The translations under genes were made by a program, and so were the position numbers. The notes beneath the pieces are model-generated. The model saw only the letters and a list, made by a program, of their open reading frames with translations. It made no database searches and had not been told where the DNA came from. Positions 2,830 through 64,000 of a stretch of 64,000 nucleotides of DNA are shown here, in pieces. Every line of letters begins with the position of its first letter. Within the stretch, counting starts at the first letter, position 1. The stretch comes from a virus, in the IMG/VR virus record IMGVR_UViG_3300003322_001323, positions 10,534 through 74,533 of that record; one strand, given 5' to 3'.

Positions 2830-3030
2830 TTAATTTTCTTCGGAAATTTCCAGATAGTCGTAGCCGACCAGCTCGCTGGTCAAATCGGGCTTGTGCCCGA
2901 CCACCCCGCTGTCCGCGGCCGCGAGGAGCTGCTCAAAGGTGGGATAAAACCCAATGAAGGTCTTGCAGACCGTATCTTGCCCTGGGAAGGTGAAGCAGGC
3001 TATGAGGGCGTATTTATCATTGTTGGTCAT
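2830..3030 (-). CDS. Hypothetical protein
   Basis: Same AGGAGGTCTTCAATG start context as the next gene. Confidence 0.75.
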   Translation of the reverse strand: MTNNDKYALIACFTFPGQDTVCKTFIGFYPTFEQLLAAADSGVVGHKPDLTSELVGYDYLEISEEN

Positions 3031-3058
3031 TGAAGACCTCCTTGGGTTCTGTTGGGAG

Positions 3059-3093
3059 GACTACACCACGGCCCTGAACAAATGTAAACCCCC
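3059..3093 (-). promoter_or_regulatory. Putative phage early promoter, copy A
   Basis: 30/35 identical to 21081-21115; minus strand TTTACA-17 bp-TGTAGT; intergenic. Confidence 0.7.
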
Positions 3094-3106
3094 GCATGAA
3101 GATATT

Positions 3107-3130
3107 TTGCAGGCCCCTTTAAGCCTGCAA
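3107..3130. terminator. Hairpin (TTGCAGGC/GCCTGCAA), possible terminator or operator
   Basis: 8-bp inverted repeat between the HTH gene stop and promoter A. Confidence 0.35.
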
Positions 3131-3140
3131 TTTCAAGGAC

Positions 3141-3497
3141 TTAGCTAAAGCGGAAGCCGCGGCCCTCCCAGAAGGCCCGCAGGTCCGGGTGGCTGGCGGC
3201 CTCCCGGCGCAGCAGGATCACGTGGCTGATCCCCATCCTGGCGGCCGTCCGGCGCAGGGAGAGGCCCGTACGGCGCCGGGCCAGGGCGCAGAGGTCCCCA
3301 ACCGAGGGCTCCACCCCATAGCGCCACCAGCGGGGCAGCTCAAACTCGATTTGATCCGTTTCGCGCAGCCAGTAGGAGGTGCGCCCGAGCCCGAAGCGCG
3401 CGGCGGCGTGCACCTGCTTGATCCCTTCACGCCGGCGCCACAGCCAGAGCTGCTCGCCGAAGGTCTGGTCGGTCAAATCCTTGTTGGTGCTGTTCAT
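3141..3497 (-). CDS. Tandem XRE-type helix-turn-helix protein
   Basis: WRRREGIKQVHAAARFGLGRTSY and ARRRTGLSLRRTAARMGISH; ATG 3497 overlaps upstream TGA. Confidence 0.75.
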   Translation of the reverse strand: MNSTNKDLTDQTFGEQLWLWRRREGIKQVHAAARFGLGRTSYWLRETDQIEFELPRWWRYGVEPSVGDLCALARRRTGLSLRRTAARMGISHVILLRREAASHPDLRAFWEGRGFRFS

Positions 3498-3925
3498 GAT
3501 GATATGAGGCTCTTGATGAGTTGCGTGGTAGGAAAGATTCCAGTGCCTATAACGTAACGCTCCAGCGCGGCGCGGTGAAGCCGGCGCTCGAAGATGAGCC
3601 GCAGCGCGAGCGGCGAGACAAAGAGATAGTCGCGGTCCACCTGGATGAGTGTCGCTACCCGCCCCCCTGCCGCGTGCCAATCCTCCTGCCACTGAACCTG
3701 CTCCTTGAAAAGCTTGGGCAGGTGCAGGGGGGTTTCGGGGCGCGCGGGCCATTCGCCCTTCTTGAGCTCCAGCCACCCATTGCAGCGGCTCGCGACGGTG
3801 GGAATCTTGCCGGCCCAGGCGACGTCCGGTGTCCCCCGCTCGCAGGCGTTCTCCACGCGGTGCAGGCAGAGAAATACTCCCACCTTGTCGCGCAGGGTTT
3901 TCCAGAGACCGTCCTCGCTGCTCAT
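3494..3925 (-). CDS. PD-(D/E)XK nuclease, VRR-NUC/Holliday junction resolvase-like
   Basis: RVEN..GTPDV...WLELK, EQVQW, AGGR. Confidence 0.85.
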   Translation of the reverse strand: MSSEDGLWKTLRDKVGVFLCLHRVENACERGTPDVAWAGKIPTVASRCNGWLELKKGEWPARPETPLHLPKLFKEQVQWQEDWHAAGGRVATLIQVDRDYLFVSPLALRLIFERRLHRAALERYVIGTGIFPTTQLIKSLISS

Positions 3926-4326
3926 GCATATTGATCCAGGTTACGGAATAGCGCCGACTTTTGCTTTGGGCTGAGCGACCCACGCTGATCCCACTGTTCC
4001 TTGAGCGAAGTGATAAATTGCTCGGTGCCGGAGGGCAGGTTGACGCGCTCCAGGCGCCCGAAGGCCTCCTCGATCTGGGCCTGGTCGGGATCGCGCCGGG
4101 CCGGTGCTGGCCTATCCTGCGGCAGGGTGTCGCCGCCATCCTCCACCTCCGGCGCGCCGCCATCCACCTTCACCAGGCGGGCGAAGGCGTCGGCCCAGGT
4201 GTAGTTGTACTTGGCGAGCAGGGCGTTGGCCGCCCGCAGCGCGTTGAGCGCCTCCGCGTCGTTGGTGGAGGTCGTTTGCATCATCGTCTTTTCCAGCACG
4301 CGGAAGTCGCGCAGGGACATGGCCAT
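3922..4326 (-). CDS. Hypothetical protein (DUF2786-like N-terminus)
   Basis: EALNALRAANALLAKYN; C-terminal LSPKQ motif. Confidence 0.7.
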   Translation of the reverse strand: MAMSLRDFRVLEKTMMQTTSTNDAEALNALRAANALLAKYNYTWADAFARLVKVDGGAPEVEDGGDTLPQDRPAPARRDPDQAQIEEAFGRLERVNLPSGTEQFITSLKEQWDQRGSLSPKQKSALFRNLDQYA

Positions 4327-4341
4327 TTTGCGTATTCCTTT

Positions 4342-4761
4342 TTAAGGTGTCCAATGCTCCGGATCGGGAGCGCCGTCCATGCGCCGGCCCGTGTTAAACT
4401 CCACCTGTACGGCGCGATCGTCCCATAGTTCCGTCATGGCGAAGTCCTTGGTGGCCGTAATGGCGAGCACGCGGCCGATGTGCTGCTTGCACCAGCGCTC
4501 TATGGGCTTGCAGGCTAGGTCCAGCTCGCCGGGCGTACCCACGCGCGCGGTGAAGATGCGCACCTCCCGGCCCTCCTTAAGCCAGTTCTTTACGCGACGA
4601 ATCATGGGCATGATGGGCGGTCCGATATGATTATATCCGAGCCAGATGCCGTCCCAATGCGCGAGCGTTCCATCCAGGTCCACACCAATCCACCCTCTGG
4701 ATTTTGGCTTGGTGGCTCGGGTCTTGGAATGCTTGGCCGTATCAAACCGCTTGTTGGACAT
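4342..4761 (-). CDS. HAD-family phosphatase
   Basis: IGVDLDGTL, IFTAR, K, ELWDDRA motifs. Confidence 0.85.
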   Translation of the reverse strand: MSNKRFDTAKHSKTRATKPKSRGWIGVDLDGTLAHWDGIWLGYNHIGPPIMPMIRRVKNWLKEGREVRIFTARVGTPGELDLACKPIERWCKQHIGRVLAITATKDFAMTELWDDRAVQVEFNTGRRMDGAPDPEHWTP

Positions 4762-5347
4762 TCTGTTCCTTCATGATGGCAAAATAAACTTCGGCCGTGG
4801 CGCGGCAGTCCACTACCGCGCTGTGAGCGCCCTCGAAGCCGTCCGGATGCACGAAGTATTTGTAGGCTTCCTGCAGGTTCGGGGGCTTGTACTTGTCGAA
4901 GCCGGCCGCGCGCATGCGCTCGGTGGGCGGCAGCTTCATGATGGGCGTGGCGAGTTCCATGCAGCAGGTGATCTTGTCGGGACCTGGGTGCGAAGGCTGC
5001 CGGCCATAGCGATGGAAGGCGGTCCGCAGCACGGTCTCGTCGAACTTCTGGTTGAAGCCCACTACCTCGCTGGCGCGCGCTCGCAGCTGGGCAAAGACGC
5101 TCAGCGCCGTGGCCATCGGCACGCCGCACTCGCGCGCAATCTCGGTGGTGATGCCGTGAACGCGCGCCGCGCCCTCCGGTATGGTCCAGCCGTTGGGCTG
5201 GATTATGAGGTCGGCGGAGCAGACCTCCTTGCCCTCATCGGTGACGAGCAGGCAGCCCAGCTGCACCAGGTGCGGCTGCGTCGGGTGCCCCGGCGGCAGC
5301 GAGCTCTGCACTAGGCCGGTGGTTTCGGTGTCGTATACAAATATCAT
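4742..5347 (-). CDS. DEDDh 3'-5' exonuclease (DnaQ-like)
   Basis: YDTETTG, VHGI, NQKFD, AHSAVVDC. Confidence 0.92.
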   Translation of the reverse strand: MIFVYDTETTGLVQSSLPPGHPTQPHLVQLGCLLVTDEGKEVCSADLIIQPNGWTIPEGAARVHGITTEIARECGVPMATALSVFAQLRARASEVVGFNQKFDETVLRTAFHRYGRQPSHPGPDKITCCMELATPIMKLPPTERMRAAGFDKYKPPNLQEAYKYFVHPDGFEGAHSAVVDCRATAEVYFAIMKEQNVQQAV

Positions 5348-5362
5348 GGTGAATTATCTCCG

Positions 5363-5623
5363 CTATTTCGCGTGAATTGCGGGCAGGAGGACACACGCCA
5401 CCAGGTAGACGATGCCGACCCAATAAAGAAAATCGACGATGCGGACCCCCGCGTGCTCGGCCCATTTAACTCGCGGGTGCTGTCCAACCGCGCGAGAGCA
5501 TATTCCATCGTGGTCGGGATGGAGCTGGCAAAAGTCTGAATGTTCTCTCATTGAGATTCCTCCTAACAGTTTGGTGAACTCGCGGCTTTGGGTCAGATCG
5601 ACGGTGTTCAATTTGCGCTCCAT
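5363..5623 (-). CDS. Hypothetical protein with C-terminal transmembrane segment
   Basis: ORF filling the gap; FLYWVGIVYLVACVLL. Confidence 0.55.
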   Translation of the reverse strand: MERKLNTVDLTQSREFTKLLGGISMREHSDFCQLHPDHDGICSRAVGQHPRVKWAEHAGVRIVDFLYWVGIVYLVACVLLPAIHAK

Positions 5624-6082
5624 TTATCCGGCCAGGCGCCGCAGCCAGCGCCGCTTTGGCTCTGGCCGCACCGCCTTGGCGCGAGGGCGTGACGGGCGGG
5701 ACCATTCCCCGCCGTCCGTCAAACCCATGTCCATAAATCCTGCGGCCCGCAGGCTGGTGCCGGGTTCCTCCGGCAAGGTGTATGTCCAGGCTTCCCGATA
5801 CCCGAGTGCCTTTGCAGCTCGGCACAGGGCGCCATAGAGACAGGAGCAGGCATTCTCCGCGCCCTCGGTCGCCACCCTCGAAATCACGATGCGCCCGCTG
5901 TCCTGCCAAACCCGCGAAGGGTTGCCGGCGACGGCCACGCCCAGCACCGCGCCGTCATCACCCAGGACGCGAGCTGCAAAAAGACCCCCTTGCAGCTCGG
6001 GCAGGTGCCGGTGCCAAGCGCGCACGATGGCTCGCGCGGCTTTCACCGTGCAGGGCGCAATCGTGAGGCGGGACTGGCTCAA
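5624..6082 (-). CDS. XF1762-like protein (GNAT/Mom-like fold suspected)
   Basis: WHRH, VAVAGNP, SRVAT..ENACSCLYGA..RAAKALGY, TYTL.EEPGTSLRAAG. Confidence 0.8.
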   Translation of the reverse strand: MSQSRLTIAPCTVKAARAIVRAWHRHLPELQGGLFAARVLGDDGAVLGVAVAGNPSRVWQDSGRIVISRVATEGAENACSCLYGALCRAAKALGYREAWTYTLPEEPGTSLRAAGFMDMGLTDGGEWSRPSRPRAKAVRPEPKRRWLRRLAG

Positions 6083-6094
6083 GCTATGGGCTCC

Positions 6095-6268
6095 CTAGCC
6101 TTGCTCGGCTGCATAGGTGGAAGCGGTATCCGCCACCGCCTGCCACATGATCTTGCGAAATTCTGGCGCCCAGCCGTTGCGGTCCATTTCCCGTTGAAGG
6201 GGGCGCAGCAGGTCGCTCGCCTTGAAGGCGATCCGCTCGGCCAAGATTTGTGCCTTATCGTCGCTCAA
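6095..6268 (-). CDS. Hypothetical protein
   Basis: GGGAGG RBS before TTG at 6268. Confidence 0.6.
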   Translation of the reverse strand: MSDDKAQILAERIAFKASDLLRPLQREMDRNGWAPEFRKIMWQAVADTASTYAAEQG

Positions 6269-6281
6269 TGAGCCCTCCCTT

Positions 6282-6422
6282 TCAGACGTGGATTTCAGAT
6301 TTGCGAAATGACAGGCCAACCGGCCCCAGGCACAGCGTCACTTCCCACTCGGAAACGATGACGCCGACAACCCACCAGTGCAGGTCAAAGTGCGGCTGAA
6401 ATCTCCATTGCGTGATCCACAT
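6282..6422 (-). CDS. Small hydrophobic protein (46 aa), not in ORF track
   Basis: GAGGAG RBS supplied by the repeat; MWITQWRFQPHFDLHWWVVGVIV... Confidence 0.55.
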   Translation of the reverse strand: MWITQWRFQPHFDLHWWVVGVIVSEWEVTLCLGPVGLSFRKSEIHV

Positions 6423-6430
6423 GGTTTTGG

Positions 6431-6525
6431 CTCCTCAAAAGTTGGCGGGTGAGCAACAAGCTACGAGGACTTCCACCCCGTGCCCGGTTCTAGACCTTCG
6501 CCTGCGCTCACCCATAAAATCGCTC
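6431..6525. repeat. 95-bp perfect direct repeat, copy 1
   Basis: Identical to 6788-6882. Confidence 0.97.
6443..6513 (-). ncRNA. Putative structured RNA (three-way junction ending GCCA), copy 1
   Basis: GGGUGAGC/GCUCACCC and GCAGGC/GCUUGU stems enclosing two hairpins. Confidence 0.5.
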
Positions 6526-6527
6526 GA

Positions 6528-6779
6528 TTAGTTGGCGGGACGAATTGATGGCTGGTTGCCGCATTCGAACGCTTGGTTGCAGGAAATTTCATGGCCGTAC
6601 ATGCCGTCGCTCAGAAGAATTTGAGGCGACCCCATAGCGCAATAGTAGCAACGCTCGGCTTTGAGCTTGCACTCCGGGCATGTGCTGGACCGCTTCTGGC
6701 CAAGGTAGTGATTGCCGCAGCGGCCACACTCGCATTCATACTGATCTTCTTTGGCGAAATCTGGTATCAGGTTGGTCAC
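6528..6779 (-). CDS. Cys-rich zinc-binding small protein
   Basis: CECGRCG, CPEC, CYYC; lies between the two repeats. Confidence 0.7.
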   Translation of the reverse strand: MTNLIPDFAKEDQYECECGRCGNHYLGQKRSSTCPECKLKAERCYYCAMGSPQILLSDGMYGHEISCNQAFECGNQPSIRPAN

Positions 6780-48306: not shown

Positions 48307-48657
48307 ATGAACCGTTTTCTCTCTTTCCTGTTCGGCGCGATCCTGCTGGGCCTTTCGGCCGACGTGGCGAGCGCGGACGGCTGGGTGCAGCAGGTACCGC
48401 TCGGTTATCAGCAGATTACGTCGCTGGGCACCGCTCAGGCCCTCACGGTACCCAGTGGCGCCACTCAGGCGGTGATTTATGTGGAGGCCCAGGCGGTGCG
48501 CTATCGCGACGATGGCACGAACCCCACCGCTACGGTGGGCGCGCCGCTTGCCGTTACCGGGAGCGGCCAGCCGTTGGTTTACAACGGGACCTTGAGCGCT
48601 ATTCGTTTCATCGAGCAGACCTCGGGAGCGAAAATCAACATTCTTTATTATCGCTAA
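48307..48657 (+). CDS. Beta-rich protein with Sec-type signal peptide
   Basis: MNRFLSFLFGAILLGLSADVASA; VRYRDDGTNPT. Confidence 0.75.
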   Translation: MNRFLSFLFGAILLGLSADVASADGWVQQVPLGYQQITSLGTAQALTVPSGATQAVIYVEAQAVRYRDDGTNPTATVGAPLAVTGSGQPLVYNGTLSAIRFIEQTSGAKINILYYR

Positions 48658-49437
48658 ATGGCGCTGCTCGTCTCCCCCACCCAGGAGGAGACCCTCACGG
48701 TCTTAAAGGGCTATCTGGATTCCATCGTGGGGCCGGCGCCCGTGCTGCAGGCTCAGGGCAATCGTGTGCCCGAGGTGGCGGCCGATGCCTTTGTGCTGAT
48801 GACACCGGGAAACCGGGTACGGCTCTCAACGAACCGTGACAGCTTTTTGGACTGCGCCTTTACCGCTTCGATCAGCAATGACCAGCTAACGGTAACGGCG
48901 GTGGCGATCGGGGTAATTGTCACTCCAGCGCAGATTTTTTCACCCTCGTTCGATCTGGGTACGCCGGTTACCATTTTAAGCCAGCTTTCCGGTGATCCTG
49001 GTGGGGTTGGCGTGTATCAGCTCTCCGCGGCGCCTGACGTCGACGCGCATTCCGACGTGGGTGAGTTCGTGATTGGCGAGAGCCCGGTGGAGGGTACCAA
49101 GTTTGCCTCGGGCCAGGAGGGCGCGCTACAGCCCACCAAGTTCCGGGTGCAGCTGGACGTGCACGGCGAAGCCAGCGCGGACCTCTCCCAGATTATTTCA
49201 ACCATGCTCTGGGATGAGCAGGCCTTTGACTTCTTCAAGGCAGCCAATCCCAACGTGCTGCCGCTCTACTGCGACGATCCGCGTCAGCTGCCGTTCAACA
49301 ACGATCAGAGCCAGGTTGAAAACCGCTGGGTTGTTGACGTCTATCTTCAAGTAAACGCTACGGTGCGGGCACCGCAGCAATTTGCCGACCAGGTAGCGGT
49401 TGGCCTTATCAATGTCGATGCCACCTATCCCCCGTGA
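48658..49437 (+). CDS. Tail terminator/neck protein with inserted module
   Basis: QGNRVPE, VQLDVHG, PLYCDDPRQ, ENRW. Confidence 0.8.
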   Translation: MALLVSPTQEETLTVLKGYLDSIVGPAPVLQAQGNRVPEVAADAFVLMTPGNRVRLSTNRDSFLDCAFTASISNDQLTVTAVAIGVIVTPAQIFSPSFDLGTPVTILSQLSGDPGGVGVYQLSAAPDVDAHSDVGEFVIGESPVEGTKFASGQEGALQPTKFRVQLDVHGEASADLSQIISTMLWDEQAFDFFKAANPNVLPLYCDDPRQLPFNNDQSQVENRWVVDVYLQVNATVRAPQQFADQVAVGLINVDATYPP

Positions 49438-59326: not shown

Positions 59327-60484
59327 ATGCTGCTGACCGATATTCCCGTACGGTTCGAAATCCCCTTCGCCAAGAACGCGCCGGGCCCGTACATCTCCAC
59401 CCCGATCCCCCTGACCACGCCCACCCCGGGGCGCGCATCGCTTGACGTCGGCTTTCCAGCGGTAAATTTTCTGCCGCGAGGTAGCGGCGGTATTCCGCCG
59501 TTCGGAGTAGATTTCAATGGCCTAATGTTTCAGGTTACTTCGTGGAACCAATGGCATGCGGCAGGGGGGCCGATATTCTACAACACGGCCTTTGCGACGG
59601 CGATCGGAGGCTATCCGAACGGTGCGTGCCTGCTTTCAGCCAACTATCCGGGCCTGGTGTGGCAGAGCACGGCCGATAACAACCTCACCGATCCGGATGA
59701 TTTTGCCACCGCGGCGAACTGGATTTGCGTCCGGAGGTGGAAGCTCTCCGCTGCCACGAACCTATACGTTCGCGCGGATGGCAACGACAATAATTCTGGG
59801 CTTGCCAACAGCGTTGGTGGCGCGTGGCTTACGCCGCAACGCGCGGCAGACTTCATTCAAAAATATGTGGACGTGGGAGCTCAGATTCTCACCGTCAATA
59901 TCGGCGCCGGAACGTTTGGAGTGCTTGGGGTTTCTGGGCCTTTCCCGGGAGCTGCAGGTCCCAACAGCGTTCGCTTCATCGGTGCTGGCTCCACAACCAT
60001 TCTTTCTGGAGCCATACCTATCTCTGGTACGGCGGTCGCGGCTTTCACGGTGGCTGGAGTACAGTCTAATTTCAGTGATCGCGGCGTAATTGCTCAGAGC
60101 AACGCAGTTATCATTATCGGTATTGGCTCAACTTCAGTTACTTTTAACAGCATCGGCGGTACTTTCCATATTGACGCGGATAGCGGTGGCATAATCATTG
60201 GCGGTGGCAATATTTCCATTCAAGGAAATTCCAACGCCTGGGCTGCGGTGGCTGGTCCTAGCACGATAACCATTATCAGCAGAACCTTGACATTCGTAGG
60301 AACGCCAGCTTTTTCAAATGCCGGCGTCTTTACCCAGTACGGCTACATTCAATTTGTAGGTAACACGTACGTTGGAACTACGACTGGTCTAAAGTACAGC
60401 ACCACCTATAACGGCATGATTGAAGGGGTTACCGGACTTCCGGGTTCCGGTACCAATCAGCAAAACGGTGGCCAGTTCCTCTGA
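59327..60484 (+). CDS. Tail fibre protein
   Basis: ASL..GFP, GGIPP.G.DFNG, IGGYP.GA N-terminal anchor; beta-helix-like C-terminus. Confidence 0.85.
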   Translation: MLLTDIPVRFEIPFAKNAPGPYISTPIPLTTPTPGRASLDVGFPAVNFLPRGSGGIPPFGVDFNGLMFQVTSWNQWHAAGGPIFYNTAFATAIGGYPNGACLLSANYPGLVWQSTADNNLTDPDDFATAANWICVRRWKLSAATNLYVRADGNDNNSGLANSVGGAWLTPQRAADFIQKYVDVGAQILTVNIGAGTFGVLGVSGPFPGAAGPNSVRFIGAGSTTILSGAIPISGTAVAAFTVAGVQSNFSDRGVIAQSNAVIIIGIGSTSVTFNSIGGTFHIDADSGGIIIGGGNISIQGNSNAWAAVAGPSTITIISRTLTFVGTPAFSNAGVFTQYGYIQFVGNTYVGTTTGLKYSTTYNGMIEGVTGLPGSGTNQQNGGQFL

Positions 60485-60492
60485 GGTTCGCA

Positions 60493-61740
60493 ATGAAAAA
60501 TTATTTTGGGTTTTTAACATTGCTGATTGGCCTGGCGTTCGCTAATTCAGCGCTCGCGCAGAGCTCGCCGCATCTATATAATGGCCAGCAGCCAAGCAAC
60601 GTGCAGTGGAACTCCTATTTCGCGGCCAAGCAGGACTATCCGGTGCCACCGTTCACCACCACGCAGTCGGGAAGCGTACCCATTTCGCCGGGAGGTACCA
60701 CCGCCTTCTTGCGCGCGGATGGAACCTGGGCGGTACCTGGCGCCGTCATTCTGCCGGGCGATCCGACGGCCACGATCGGCTCCACGCCGGTAAACGGGGT
60801 AGCGACCACCTACATGCGCAGCGACGCGGCGCCGAAGCTTCCGGCTGTTCTGCCCGCGCTGGATGGTTCGCAGCTTACGAATCTGACGATCAACAACCTA
60901 TCCGGCCTGGGTACGGGCGTGGCAACGGCGCTGACGCAAAACGTTTCGGGGACGGGCGCGATTTGCCTGGTTTCTGGAAGCGCCTGCTCGGGAACGCCCG
61001 GCGGGTCCAGCGGTCAGATGCAATGGAATAGCAGTGGCAGCTTTGCGGGAGTAAGTGGTTCCTCGTGCAACGCATCATTTTGCACGCTTACCGGCTACGT
61101 GCTCAGCAGCCCTTCCTTGGGTGGCAGTGTGGTATTTTCGGGCATCACGGGGTCCACACAGTGCCTGCAAGTTAATTCCTCCGGAATTGTATCCGGCACG
61201 GGCTCCGCTTGCGGTGGCGGTGGTGGAGTTACCACCACGGGTTCACCGGCGAATGGCAATTTGACGAAATTTTCCGGAGCATCTACCATTACCAATGGGG
61301 ACCTCTCCGGTGACTGCACGACCTCGGGCACCCTGGTGGTTACGTGCCCATCGCCGATTGCCAAGATCAACGTCAATAACAGCTGGACGGCCGCGCAGCG
61401 TGGCACGCCCGTTACGCTTTCGCTTTCCACGGCGACCGCTACACCAAACTTCGATACGGGACAGAATTTTTCTCTCACGCTTTCCAGCGCTTGCCCCTGC
61501 ACCTTTGCCAATCCATCCACCACGCCGGTGGCGGGACAAACTGGCGTTATTGTCATTATACAAGACGCCACGGGTGGCCGAACTATTGGAACCTGGGGCA
61601 GTAATTATATAACGCCTGGTGGGGTTTCAGTCGGTCTTGCCTTAAGCACTGCCGCCAATGCCAGAGATTATTTCAGCTACTACGTGGATGATTCCACGCA
61701 TATCGTGATCACGCCGGGAGCTCTAAATGCAATCCATTAA
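60493..61740 (+). CDS. Fibre-like protein with signal peptide and five Cys pairs
   Basis: Signal ending ALA-Q; QWNSYFAAKQD; FLRADGTW; IIQDATGGRT fibre-tip-like motif. Confidence 0.8.
   Translation: MKNYFGFLTLLIGLAFANSALAQSSPHLYNGQQPSNVQWNSYFAAKQDYPVPPFTTTQSGSVPISPGGTTAFLRADGTWAVPGAVILPGDPTATIGSTPVNGVATTYMRSDAAPKLPAVLPALDGSQLTNLTINNLSGLGTGVATALTQNVSGTGAICLVSGSACSGTPGGSSGQMQWNSSGSFAGVSGSSCNASFCTLTGYVLSSPSLGGSVVFSGITGSTQCLQVNSSGIVSGTGSACGGGGGVTTTGSPANGNLTKFSGASTITNGDLSGDCTTSGTLVVTCPSPIAKINVNNSWTAAQRGTPVTLSLSTATATPNFDTGQNFSLTLSSACPCTFANPSTTPVAGQTGVIVIIQDATGGRTIGTWGSNYITPGGVSVGLALSTAANARDYFSYYVDDSTHIVITPGALNAIH
60603..60644 (+). repeat. 42-bp perfect repeat shared by two fibre-like genes, copy 1
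   Basis: Identical to 63845-63886. Confidence 0.95.
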
Positions 61741-62821
61741 ACGCATCGTACTTTCTCTTTTGCTGGCGTTGAGCTTACTTTGCTCACCCGCAGCACTGCA
61801 GCCGACGTTCGCTACCATCCTGTTTGCCGGCGGGGAGGACGTGGATTTCAGTTTGATAGGGGATACCGCGCCAAGCAATACGTCCGGATTTTTCCGGACC
61901 GGCTACGCTCGGTCTGCCATTCGAGTGTCCACTACCGCGACAACTGATCCGAATAACAATCGTTTCTATACACCCACCTTTACGGCTGGATCAACCATCT
62001 GGTTTCATGCGGTGGAGCGAAATGAAAATAATACCACCGAAACCAGCAACGGGCAATATCTTTGCGCCATATCGCCGGACGCGGTGTGCCGCCTTGTAAT
62101 TCGGGCAGTTACAGGCACCCAGGTAAAAATCTCAAAGCGCGATTCCGCTGGCAGCTTCACGGACCTTGTGACGTGCAGCCTTGGCGCATGGCCATTGAAT
62201 TCGCTCACCGAGATGGATTGGTTTATCAATTACAACACGTCAGGCAGTACCATTATATATGTCGGTGGCGTCAATATCTGTTCTTACACGGGAAACGTGA
62301 CGACAGATTCTGCGACCCAGATCAATCAGTTTTATCTCAGCAATGGCAGTGCCTTCCACGGCACATATTGGTCTGAAATTATCATAGCGGACACTGACAC
62401 ACGGGACATGAATCTTTTCACATGTTTCCCGAGTGGCGCGGGCACCACTCAGAGCTGGACGGGTGCCTATACCGACGTGAGTCCAGTTACTATCACTGAC
62501 ACTGCGGCGATAACCACTACCTCAACCAGCGCTATCGGAAACTTTACGTGTCCGTCTTTACCGTCTGGTGCCTTCACTGTTCCTGCCGTCGTTCAATCTG
62601 CACGGGTTCAGGGAGCAACTGGGTCCATCACCAACTTCCGGTTCAACAGTCGTCCAGCCGGCGCAGGCGCGGACTTCGACACCACTTCCGACATTGCGGT
62701 AACGGGGATTTTCCAGAATTATCCCAATCGCATTATTACCTTGAACCCAAATACGTCTACTCCATGGACAACCACTACTTTGGGAGCGGGTGTTAACTTC
62801 GGGGTCAAGAGCCGCCCGTGA
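61727..62821 (+). CDS. Lectin/beta-sandwich-like protein with signal peptide
   Basis: MQSIKRIVLSLLLALSLL...; FAGGED; NPNT..PWT; paired Cys. Confidence 0.75.
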   Translation: MQSIKRIVLSLLLALSLLCSPAALQPTFATILFAGGEDVDFSLIGDTAPSNTSGFFRTGYARSAIRVSTTATTDPNNNRFYTPTFTAGSTIWFHAVERNENNTTETSNGQYLCAISPDAVCRLVIRAVTGTQVKISKRDSAGSFTDLVTCSLGAWPLNSLTEMDWFINYNTSGSTIIYVGGVNICSYTGNVTTDSATQINQFYLSNGSAFHGTYWSEIIIADTDTRDMNLFTCFPSGAGTTQSWTGAYTDVSPVTITDTAAITTTSTSAIGNFTCPSLPSGAFTVPAVVQSARVQGATGSITNFRFNSRPAGAGADFDTTSDIAVTGIFQNYPNRIITLNPNTSTPWTTTTLGAGVNFGVKSRP

Positions 62822-63708
62822 AGAAACTTCTCGTTCTTCTGGCATTCCTATTCTGGCCGGCTGCCGCTTTGGCGGCGCCGGCAGTGGACGGCTTTAGCGC
62901 AGTACAAAGCCATTCCGGCAATTCCGCCCTGGCGCTTACCCTCACCACGACGAACACAAATGATATAATCGTGGTGCCAGTTCTGTTGAATGGCGGCCAT
63001 GTTACCTCCATCACCAGCACTACCGGACTTACTTTTACGCTCCGGAAAACTTCAAATACCTCTCCGAATAGCGGTACCTTTACAATTGAAGAATGGACCG
63101 CACCGGCCGCAGCCGCGCTTACCAGTGAAACAATCACCGTAAATGTTTCCTCCGATACCGGCTTTGTTCGCGGCGGAGCCTTTGGCGTTTCCGGAGCTAC
63201 CTTCGCCTCACCTATTGATCCAGGTACCAGCTCAGGTCCAACGACCCCGGGCACGACCGCAATTACCTTGGGCAAGACCTATCTTCCCAATGATCTAATC
63301 ATTGGATTTTATCGGTTTGCGAGCACCAGCACGCCAACCGCTGGCAGCGGATGGACATCTATCTTTCCAACGACCAGCACCTTCATGCTGATCGAAACCC
63401 AAGCCTTCTCCTCAACGCAATCGAGTCTATCTGTCGCTATTGGTACTGGAGCATCGGACGTCAGTGGAGGATTGGTGGACGCTTTCACCTCTGATACTGA
63501 CACGTCGGAGCGATCCAGCAAGATCAACAGCTATCCGATTTTGAACGCCGGAACGGTTAGCGCCATGAGTGCCAGCAAGATTGATGCCTATCCAATCCTC
63601 AACGCCGGTACGGCATCTGCGATAAGCGTCAGCAAAATAAATACCTACGCGATCTTAAAGGCCGTTCCAAACCACACCACCCCGCTATTCCACAGCTTCC
63701 CTCCGTGA
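62818..63708 (+). CDS. Thr/Ser-rich beta protein with signal peptide and three C-terminal repeats
   Basis: MKKLLVLLAFLFWPAAALA; SKIN/DxYxIL repeats. Confidence 0.75.
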   Translation: MKKLLVLLAFLFWPAAALAAPAVDGFSAVQSHSGNSALALTLTTTNTNDIIVVPVLLNGGHVTSITSTTGLTFTLRKTSNTSPNSGTFTIEEWTAPAAAALTSETITVNVSSDTGFVRGGAFGVSGATFASPIDPGTSSGPTTPGTTAITLGKTYLPNDLIIGFYRFASTSTPTAGSGWTSIFPTTSTFMLIETQAFSSTQSSLSVAIGTGASDVSGGLVDAFTSDTDTSERSSKINSYPILNAGTVSAMSASKIDAYPILNAGTASAISVSKINTYAILKAVPNHTTPLFHSFPP

Positions 63709-63722
63709 GAAAGGTTTAAATC

Positions 63723-64000
63723 ATGGAAAATAACAAGTTCTTGACCCGTCTCGCCATCATTACCGCTGCCCTGCTGGCCTCGGCCGCGCCGGCCTGCTCG
63801 CAGTCCAATCCTAACCTGGTGTTCGGTCAGGTCCCCACGGCCGCGCAGTGGAACTCCTATTTCGCGGCCAAGCAGGACTATCCGGTTCCGGTATTCAGCG
63901 CCACGGTGAACGGCTCCGTGCCGGCGCCGGGTACCGCGGTCGGCAACTGCTTGAAGGACGACGCAACCTGGGGTTCCTGCGGCGGTGGCGGTGGCGGCTC
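63723..64000 (+). CDS. Fibre-like protein with signal peptide, paralog of 60493 gene (truncated by window)
   Basis: MENNKFLTRLAIITAALLASAAPACSQ...GQVPTAAQWNSYFAAKQDYPVP. Confidence 0.8.
   Translation, partial: MENNKFLTRLAIITAALLASAAPACSQSNPNLVFGQVPTAAQWNSYFAAKQDYPVPVFSATVNGSVPAPGTAVGNCLKDDATWGSCGGGGGG
63845..63886 (+). repeat. 42-bp perfect repeat, copy 2
   Basis: Identical to 60603-60644. Confidence 0.95.

Follow-up and report, generated by a model that had tools for sequence, protein, structure and literature searches.

Predicted Sec export of tail fibres from the late operon of an uncultured myophage

Introduction

Textbooks describe the assembly of tailed phages as wholly cytoplasmic. 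The long tail fibres of T4 fold on a pathway of their own and attach last to finished particles, a step for which in vitro complementation works, and holin lesions join the cytoplasm and the periplasm before the outer membrane breaks. The coat proteins pIII and pVIII of filamentous phages are made with signal peptides, and pIII needs periplasmic disulfide formation; to our knowledge, exported and disulfide-bonded virion proteins are known for filamentous phages and not for tailed ones. Signal-bearing proteins also occur beside the tail-fibre genes of lambda (Lom and Bor), T5 (Llp) and phi80 and N15 (Cor), as small outer-membrane proteins or lipoproteins that act in exclusion or conversion. Here we describe five genes of a contractile-tailed phage (myophage), IMG/VR record IMGVR_UViG_3300003322_001323, whose products, two of them fibre-like, carry predicted Sec-type export leaders. 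The window analysed is a stretch of 64,000 nucleotides (nt), bases 10534-74533 of this 74,533-base-pair record, which is rated complete with a 25-nt terminal repeat; genes are named by their first position in the window.

A signal peptide combined with phage tail-fibre repeats is a listed architecture among Sec-dependent polymorphic toxins (Zhang et al. 2012, PMC3482391), and a 2026 paper on the carbohydrate-active enzymes (CAZymes) of soil prophages counts signal peptides and leaves out tail fibres. Our full-text literature search found no paper on Sec leaders on the tail fibres of tailed phages. A wider reading, with a probability of roughly 0.45, is that a large group of uncultured tailed phages builds its particle in two compartments, head, tail and baseplate forming in the cytoplasm and the fibres being exported by Sec, oxidised and clipped on when holin lesions or lysis merge the two, that lineages switch route by adding or dropping a leader, and that bacteria have borrowed the set for RHS toxins. 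New from this analysis are the boundary between leader and body in five families with and without leaders, the exchange of both fibre forms in the same slot, leaders on the 59327-type fibre, and a cassette linked to RHS toxins.

Results

Five genes of the tail region carry predicted export leaders

Leaders were called with a heuristic of our own for the n-, h- and c-regions, which demands a positive n-region, an uncharged hydrophobic core of at least 8 residues, and small residues at -3 and -1. It flags exactly 5 of the 25 genes from 43921 to 64000, namely 48307, 60493, 61727, 62818 and 63723 (Table 1), and elsewhere in the genome only the holin-like protein, a lipoprotein and one antisense open reading frame. 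An earlier note, made from the letters of the window, had seen signal-peptide-like leaders on these same five genes, mostly ending in A-x-A, and both observations hold: the leaders end in ALA, TFA, ALA and ASA, with ACS in 63723. The note had also considered that the true starts might lie downstream. We find ribosome-binding motifs (GAGG, GGGAG, AAAGG and TAGGAG, the last one 8 nt ahead of 48307) at 8-9 nt ahead of four of the five leader starts; the start of 62818 is a GTG that overlaps the preceding stop, with only a weak AAGAG ahead of it. None of the five has an in-frame ATG, GTG or TTG in the stretch that leads from the hydrophobic core to the conserved start of the mature protein, except for a TTG in 62818 without a ribosome-binding site. 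On these two grounds we rejected mis-called starts. A lipoprotein assignment of 63723 was rejected as well, since in the alignment Cys25 falls at position -2 of an A-x-S site, as it does in a homolog; no lipobox is present in the window's predicted exported proteins.

The leader ends at a conserved boundary

Across five families the leader varies in sequence, is constant in character and ends where the conserved body starts, and both alignments and lists of N-termini show that leaderless relatives begin at the predicted cleavage residue. The family of 61727 comprises 63 database proteins, 44 of which have a leader with A-x-A right before the conserved TILFAGGED; about 16 are leaderless and start with MTILFAGGED or MSILWCGGED. 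The domain family of 62818 is larger, with 849 representatives (E up to 0.001), and among its 107 small members 38 bear a leader and the other 69 mostly start with MALALDGS, at the residue past the predicted cut. For fibres with the QWN-type N-domain the leader is found in 26 of 30, and those of loci L069 and L070 start at the mature N-terminus. In the fibre family of 60493, 79 of 120 homologs are leader-bearing among the matches listed. Homologs of 48307 in two other phages (L041 and L062) are leaderless and lie downstream of tail-fibre genes, and the fifth family with both forms is that of the 59327-type fibres. Addition or loss of a leader in five families amounts to a clean natural experiment on a module that changes compartment.

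Cysteines follow the leader

The ten cysteines of 60493 form five local pairs (158/165, 192/197, 224/240, 275/285 and 334/336), a count that agrees with the earlier note. The paired cysteines that it had reported for 61727 and 63723 are also present: 61727 has seven cysteines, of which six lie past the leader and one within it, and 63723, with three in the window, has twelve mature cysteines in six local pairs at its full length of 1023 amino acids. Neither 62818 nor 48307 contains a cysteine. Within the 61727 family, leader-bearing members have even cysteine counts in 43 of 44 cases (range 4-10) and none has zero, whereas leaderless members have 0-6 cysteines with odd counts in 7 of 19; Cys150 and Cys185 are found in 38-40 of 44 leader-bearing proteins versus 2 of 17 leaderless ones. 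The fibre family has 1.53 cysteines per 100 residues with a leader (even in 70 of 79) versus 0.60 without (14 of 41 have none), and fibres that occupy the same slot in related phages, described below, have 1.14 versus 0.18. Even, leader-linked cysteines are the signature expected of folding in an oxidising compartment, and the pairs appear to have been gained repeatedly because their number varies from 2 to 5 across the family. The earlier claim of export and oxidative folding is thereby strongly supported: since the leaders end at a conserved boundary, leaderless relatives start there and cysteines track the leaders, we consider the predicted export and oxidative folding of these proteins very likely.

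The fibre slot in related phages

We surveyed IMG/VR with two seeds, the QWN motif and the leaderless N-domain of 59327, the second survey hence being blind to leaders. With the first seed, about 25 myophage contigs were found to keep baseplate J, DUF2612, a 59327-type fibre and a leader-bearing fibre, which in four contigs lies between baseplate J and DUF2612. With the second, the slot past the 59327-type fibre contains one of two kinds of fibre, either leader-bearing and rich in cysteine or leaderless and poor in it, at 37 versus 5. Both forms carry the N-domain YG.V.T..QW...F..KQD, leaderless fibres with it being found in loci L100, L122, L136 and L113. In our phage 60493 and 63723 share a mature N-domain of about 32 residues, which contains the GQ.P...QWNSYFAAKQD motif that the earlier note had taken for an anchor. 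The motif is real, and its reading as an anchor fits: some 40 related phages have it at the head of the same-slot fibre, whether or not a leader precedes it. Within the shared N-domain, a 42-nt stretch encoding QWNSYFAAKQDYPV is identical in 60493 and 63723 (window 60603-60644 and 63845-63886) and its flanks, leaders included, have diverged, a pattern suggestive of gene conversion or of a recombination point at which fibre bodies are swapped.

The 59327-type fibre is itself leader-bearing in about 9 of about 70 relatives, and most of these genes have a ribosome-binding site, lie at the normal distance from DUF2612 and offer no alternative start. In two of them (L087 and L128; 3941-4003) a Met directly follows the cleavage site, which looks like the footprint of a leader added upstream of an old start. 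Because this old Met start directly follows the leader, one gene may give two forms, and the genes of L087 and L128 could yield both an exported and a cytoplasmic fibre. Near locus position 4090, the leader-bearing 59327-type fibres of L079, L111 and L128 have QIGIQNC or QIGVTNC in place of the QIGI..G of leaderless ones; these variants appear to be a cysteine gained inside the conserved N-domain. The same-slot exchange of fibres with one N-domain and the leader on the 59327-type fibre plausibly favour fibres that join the particle at lysis, in line with the attachment at or after lysis that the earlier note had put forward, mainly because a phage with all its fibres exported must recover them outside the cytoplasm or lack fibres.

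A gap-free block from baseplate to lysis

The phage is of soil type, and its tail genes follow the order sheath (49448), tube (50984), tape measure (52063), baseplate genes, baseplate J (57276), DUF2612 (58502) and fibre (59327), with a neck terminator at 48658 (NCBIfam match, E 2.5e-12). The gaps downstream of 59327 through 63723 are 8, -14, -4 and 14 nt, and all gaps from 59327 to the endolysin lie within -14 to +16 nt. The four consecutive leader-bearing genes are not the end of the run. The next gene encodes a 1283-amino-acid protein with a twin-arginine leader, and after it come a lytic transglycosylase-like lysin, whose start overlaps the stop of the 1283-residue protein, a holin-like gene and two lipoprotein-like genes. 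Promoter-like sites in the block (8 versus 4.8 +/- 2.1 in shuffles) are not above controls, and terminator-like sites are below the shuffle mean. The block from baseplate to lysis is thus a single uninterrupted late operon, since no gaps separate the genes and promoter- and terminator-like sites do not exceed shuffles.

Gene 63723 crosses both the window end and the circular junction, and its frame is open to record position 2819, giving 1023 amino acids. We accept the junction on the grounds that the reading frame is uninterrupted there and that further cysteine pairs follow beyond it; the junction is plausible, with some room for a mis-join since the join rests on a short internal repeat. 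The 25-nt "terminal repeat" sits in a repeat coding for glycine runs, of which 63723 has three copies (window 63966-63992; record 1-25 and 1887-1913). Third-position GC (GC3) in the fibre block (59327-64000) is 0.56-0.63 versus 0.70-0.85 in head and core tail genes, which fits frequent exchange of its genes. From the GC content and the taxa of homologs, the host is probably an alphaproteobacterium.

The individual proteins

Pfam and NCBIfam searches name none of the five leader-bearing proteins. The leaderless fibre 59327 matches phrog_12796, 38625 and 1396, "tail fiber protein", with E down to 2e-34, and has more than 550 relatives in IMG/VR; a PDB sequence search with it found no solved relative. 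From its position and the PHROG family names, we infer that its N-domain docks on the baseplate. In 60493 the tip has matches to phrog_9017 "tail fiber" (E 0.001) and to the fibre protein of Roseobacter phage CRP-811 (49% over 92 amino acids, E 3e-9), and so contains modules that annotated tail fibres also have. Homologs of the fibres also contain DUF5907 repeats (E 1.4e-20).

Residues 30-363 of 61727 match phrog_6368 (E 1.5e-28), and its AlphaFold2 (AF2) model (pLDDT 93.9) has a ConA/LamG-like jelly roll, a second beta domain, and its first 18 residues as a lone helix detached from the fold. The nearest solved folds, at domain level only, are clostridial neurotoxin receptor-binding domains and glucuronan and alginate lyases. 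Among predicted viral structures the nearest are uncharacterised or "virion structural" proteins of cultured phages, with BFVD matches at template-modelling (TM) scores of 0.6-0.76 to VpV262, Roseovarius phage 1 and Achromobacter AchV4 "virion structural protein". The cultured siphophage Polewnik of Brevundimonas has a leaderless homolog of 61727, annotated as hypothetical (L039:6995-7984), that sits among tail-tip genes, one gene past the tape measure and ahead of the tip-attachment gene.

The SK[IL]x.Y.IL repeat of 62818 also opens the gene downstream of leaderless 61727 homologs in many phages, and the 61727 and 62818 types therefore appear to form a conserved pair. The beta-sandwich of 62818 is well modelled; Foldseek against PDB returned no match for the model, and VIA-align returned only generic beta-sandwiches (CBM, TNF-like and phage receptor-binding heads) at Z up to 7.8, with no fold named. 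The leader of the 1283-residue protein is a predicted twin-arginine (Tat) signal, and a homolog in L040 (33% identical) keeps TRR and AAA/F. This protein has a weak match to a PcRGLX (rhamnogalacturonan-lyase-type) N-domain, and after the cut it would begin with FIFAGG, similar to the TILFAGG of 61727.

Table 1. Coordinates of the leader-bearing genes, their predicted leaders and associated features. A slash marks the predicted cut; aa, amino acids.
Feature	Coordinates	Strand	Description
48307	48307..48657	+	116 aa, leader-bearing, between tail-completion gene and neck terminator 48658; no Cys
48307 leader	aa 1-23, nt 48307-48375	+	cut ASA/DGW
59327	59327..60484	+	leaderless tail fibre; conserved N-domain aa 1-135; PHROG matches
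60493	60493..61740	+	predicted exported fibre 1, 415 aa; N-domain nt 60559-60654; five Cys pairs; tip from ~nt 61375
60493 leader	aa 1-22, nt 60493-60558	+	cut ALA/QSSP
61727	61727..62821	+	predicted exported two-domain lectin-like protein, 364 aa; six mature Cys
61727 leader	aa 1-29, nt 61727-61813	+	cut TFA/TILFAGGED
62818	62818..63708	+	predicted exported protein, 296 aa; beta-sandwich aa 20-225; three SK[IL]x.Y.IL repeats nt 63517-63657
62818 leader	aa 1-19, nt 62818-62874	+	cut ALA/APAV
63723 (5' end)	63723..64000	+	predicted exported fibre 2; N-domain nt 63801-63896; 1023 aa across junction
63723 leader	aa 1-26, nt 63723-63800	+	cut ACS/QSNP
1283-aa protein	record 2836-6687		just outside window; twin-arginine leader: SRR, core, AVA/F
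RHS cassette loci	L030:9044-16626; likewise L032, L034, L035, L036, L038		

A related cassette beside RHS toxins

We scanned chromosomes, with one genome per species, and observed leader-bearing fibre, lectin-like (61727) and SK-repeat proteins in six alphaproteobacterial loci beside a leader-bearing RHS toxin. The loci belong to Mesorhizobium shonense, M. newzealandense, Rhizobium sp. Root1203, a Rhizomicrobium and two other alphaproteobacterial assemblies. The cassette starts with a leader-bearing fibre-like protein whose tip is like that of 60493, followed by a leader-bearing homolog of 61727, a leader-bearing protein of about 100 amino acids built of SSKLSPGVV repeats, a small leader-bearing YD-repeat protein, and finally the leader-bearing RHS protein of 1100-1570 amino acids (RHS_repeat, E 1e-52 to 1e-70), in one case with a peptidase C39 domain. 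It is rare: of the 301 genomes that we sampled from the Mesorhizobium order a single one has it, the query genome itself. RHS repeats and toxin domains were found in none of the window's proteins with Pfam and NCBIfam, and RHS is seen only in the bacterial loci. In our interpretation bacteria probably took over a recognition set that was already exported; the cassette may be a hitherto undescribed set of partners or aiming devices for RHS toxins that depend on Sec. Outside Alphaproteobacteria, an Omnitrophota assembly has a leader-bearing 61727 homolog and an SK-repeat protein (L033:9974-11460), a pair that adjoins an insertion-sequence (IS)-like gene and a 2343-amino-acid leader-bearing protein.

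Discussion

What the sequences themselves show is the leaders, a conserved boundary at the cleavage site, cysteine contents that go with the leaders, and the synteny. Together they suggest that these genes are an exported branch of the host-recognition module, transcribed late in a gap-free block that runs from the baseplate to the endolysin. Under the mechanism that we propose, the fibres 60493 and 63723, along with 61727, 62818 and 48307, would pass the Sec translocon and lose their leaders at A-x-A-type sites. They would then fold in the periplasm, probably as oligomers, with host Dsb closing the local cysteine pairs, and the 1283-residue polysaccharide-lyase-like protein would leave via Tat. 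Meanwhile a particle with only the leaderless 59327 fibre would be assembled in the cytoplasm, and once holin lesions and lysis merge the compartments, the exported fibres would dock on the tail via their shared N-domain. That T4 fibres join finished particles last makes joining after the compartments mix chemically feasible. That the proteins are indeed exported, form disulfides and assemble as oligomers is what we infer, and so, more than anything else, is their attachment to the particle; for the whole chain from export through attachment we see about an even chance.

Several points weigh against this mechanism and the two-compartment assembly built on it. The leaders were called with our heuristic and not with SignalP, and the cysteine counts come from related sequences, which are not independent trials. 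Their presence on the particle is predicted from the genes, and none of the cultured phages in the phage collection that we searched has a leader-bearing member of these families. The leaderless 59327 looks like a complete fibre by itself, so that the exported fibres need not be essential. Finally, to a distance of 10 kb the surroundings of the RHS cassettes contain, on either strand, no homolog of the head, tail or baseplate genes of the phage; because the exported trio occurs there by RHS toxins without phage structural genes, it can presumably work without a virion.

This last point is the reason why we retain, as an unlikely alternative of real weight, that the proteins are exported and never reach the virion. 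The earlier note had likewise offered secreted receptor decoys or surface-display proteins as an alternative. As free periplasmic or released sugar-binding proteins they would act with the Tat-routed lyase-like enzyme to bind, mask or cut host surface polysaccharide before lysis, which would aid progeny escape, stop re-adsorption to debris or block superinfection. A ConA-like lectin/glucanase fold in 61727, with lyases and toxin receptor-binding domains as its nearest solved structures, suits such a role, as does a run of genes that ends in a large protein with a conserved twin-arginine leader, a weak PcRGLX match and a stop overlapping the endolysin start; 59327 alone could be the particle's fibre. 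However, the fibres that take this slot in related phages with the same N-domain, no leader and few cysteines could hardly be periplasmic factors, and the leader on the 59327-type fibre of about nine relatives would leave their particles fibreless. Two paralogous fibres with a shared docking-type N-domain and differing tips are, moreover, the usual pattern of virion receptor-binding proteins. The set could instead be cargo for the host, a surface or secreted complex of fibre and lectin like the RHS partners, used for adhesion or for aiming an effector, here the large Tat-routed enzyme. The gene order parallels that of the RHS loci (fibre-like, 61727-like, SK-repeat and large exported protein), and the lower GC3 of the block suggests recent acquisition. 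We nevertheless consider cargo improbable, as the genes lie between the tail fibre and the endolysin without gaps, promoters or terminators of their own, the phage proteins are free of toxin and RHS domains, about 25 related phages have the exported fibre in the same position, and the bacterial cassette itself is so rare.

We rejected a separate operon for lysogenic conversion or exclusion of the Lom, Cor or Llp type: the genes have no gaps, promoter-like and terminator-like sites do not exceed shuffles, there is no lipobox, and the products are 296-1023 amino acids long. It is very improbable, in our judgement, that the hydrophobic N-termini are something other than cleaved signals, whether mis-called starts or uncleaved helices with a role in cytoplasmic assembly. 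The c-regions of 61727 (10 residues) and 63723 (ACS) are not textbook, which together with the heuristic calling leaves this explanation some room. Against it stand the ribosome-binding sites and the lack of a usable downstream start noted above, a leader that is variable in sequence and constant in form over hundreds of homologs and ends at one residue, even cysteine counts that follow it, and the AF2 model of 61727, in which the N-terminus is apart from the fold.

Should assembly in two compartments be true, host Sec, signal peptidase and Dsb would be factors in the host range and yield of such phages, and both fibre engineering and heterologous production would require periplasmic expression. 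Filters that use signal peptides to separate "structural" from "auxiliary" phage genes would then misfile these proteins. The link to the RHS loci hints at how recognition proteins of phages come to serve in the aiming of secreted toxins.

Compared with known systems, the fibres of the window are closest to leaderless tail fibres (PHROG 12796, 38625, 1396 and 9017, and CRP-811). These likewise follow baseplate J and DUF2612, have a conserved N-domain, repeats and a variable tip, and have tip and repeat modules in common with the window's fibres. The latter, however, have a Sec-type leader and 5-6 local cysteine pairs, neither of which is found in the leaderless relatives, and unlike the T4 fibres, which are made and attached in the cytoplasm, they bear a leader. 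Like the genes described here, those for Lom, Bor, Llp and Cor lie within or beside the tail-fibre region and encode a Sec or lipoprotein signal, but the window's proteins are fibre and lectin proteins of 300-1000 amino acids, homologous to virion fibres and encoded within the late operon. With polymorphic toxins the connection is through leader-bearing 61727, fibre and SK-repeat homologs directly upstream of leader-bearing RHS proteins in Mesorhizobium, Rhizobium and Rhizomicrobium; in contrast to those toxins, the window's proteins lack RHS repeats and a toxin domain and lie inside a complete phage. Filamentous particles, in turn, are assembled at the membrane and extruded without lysis, whereas the phage described here is tailed and built in the cytoplasm.

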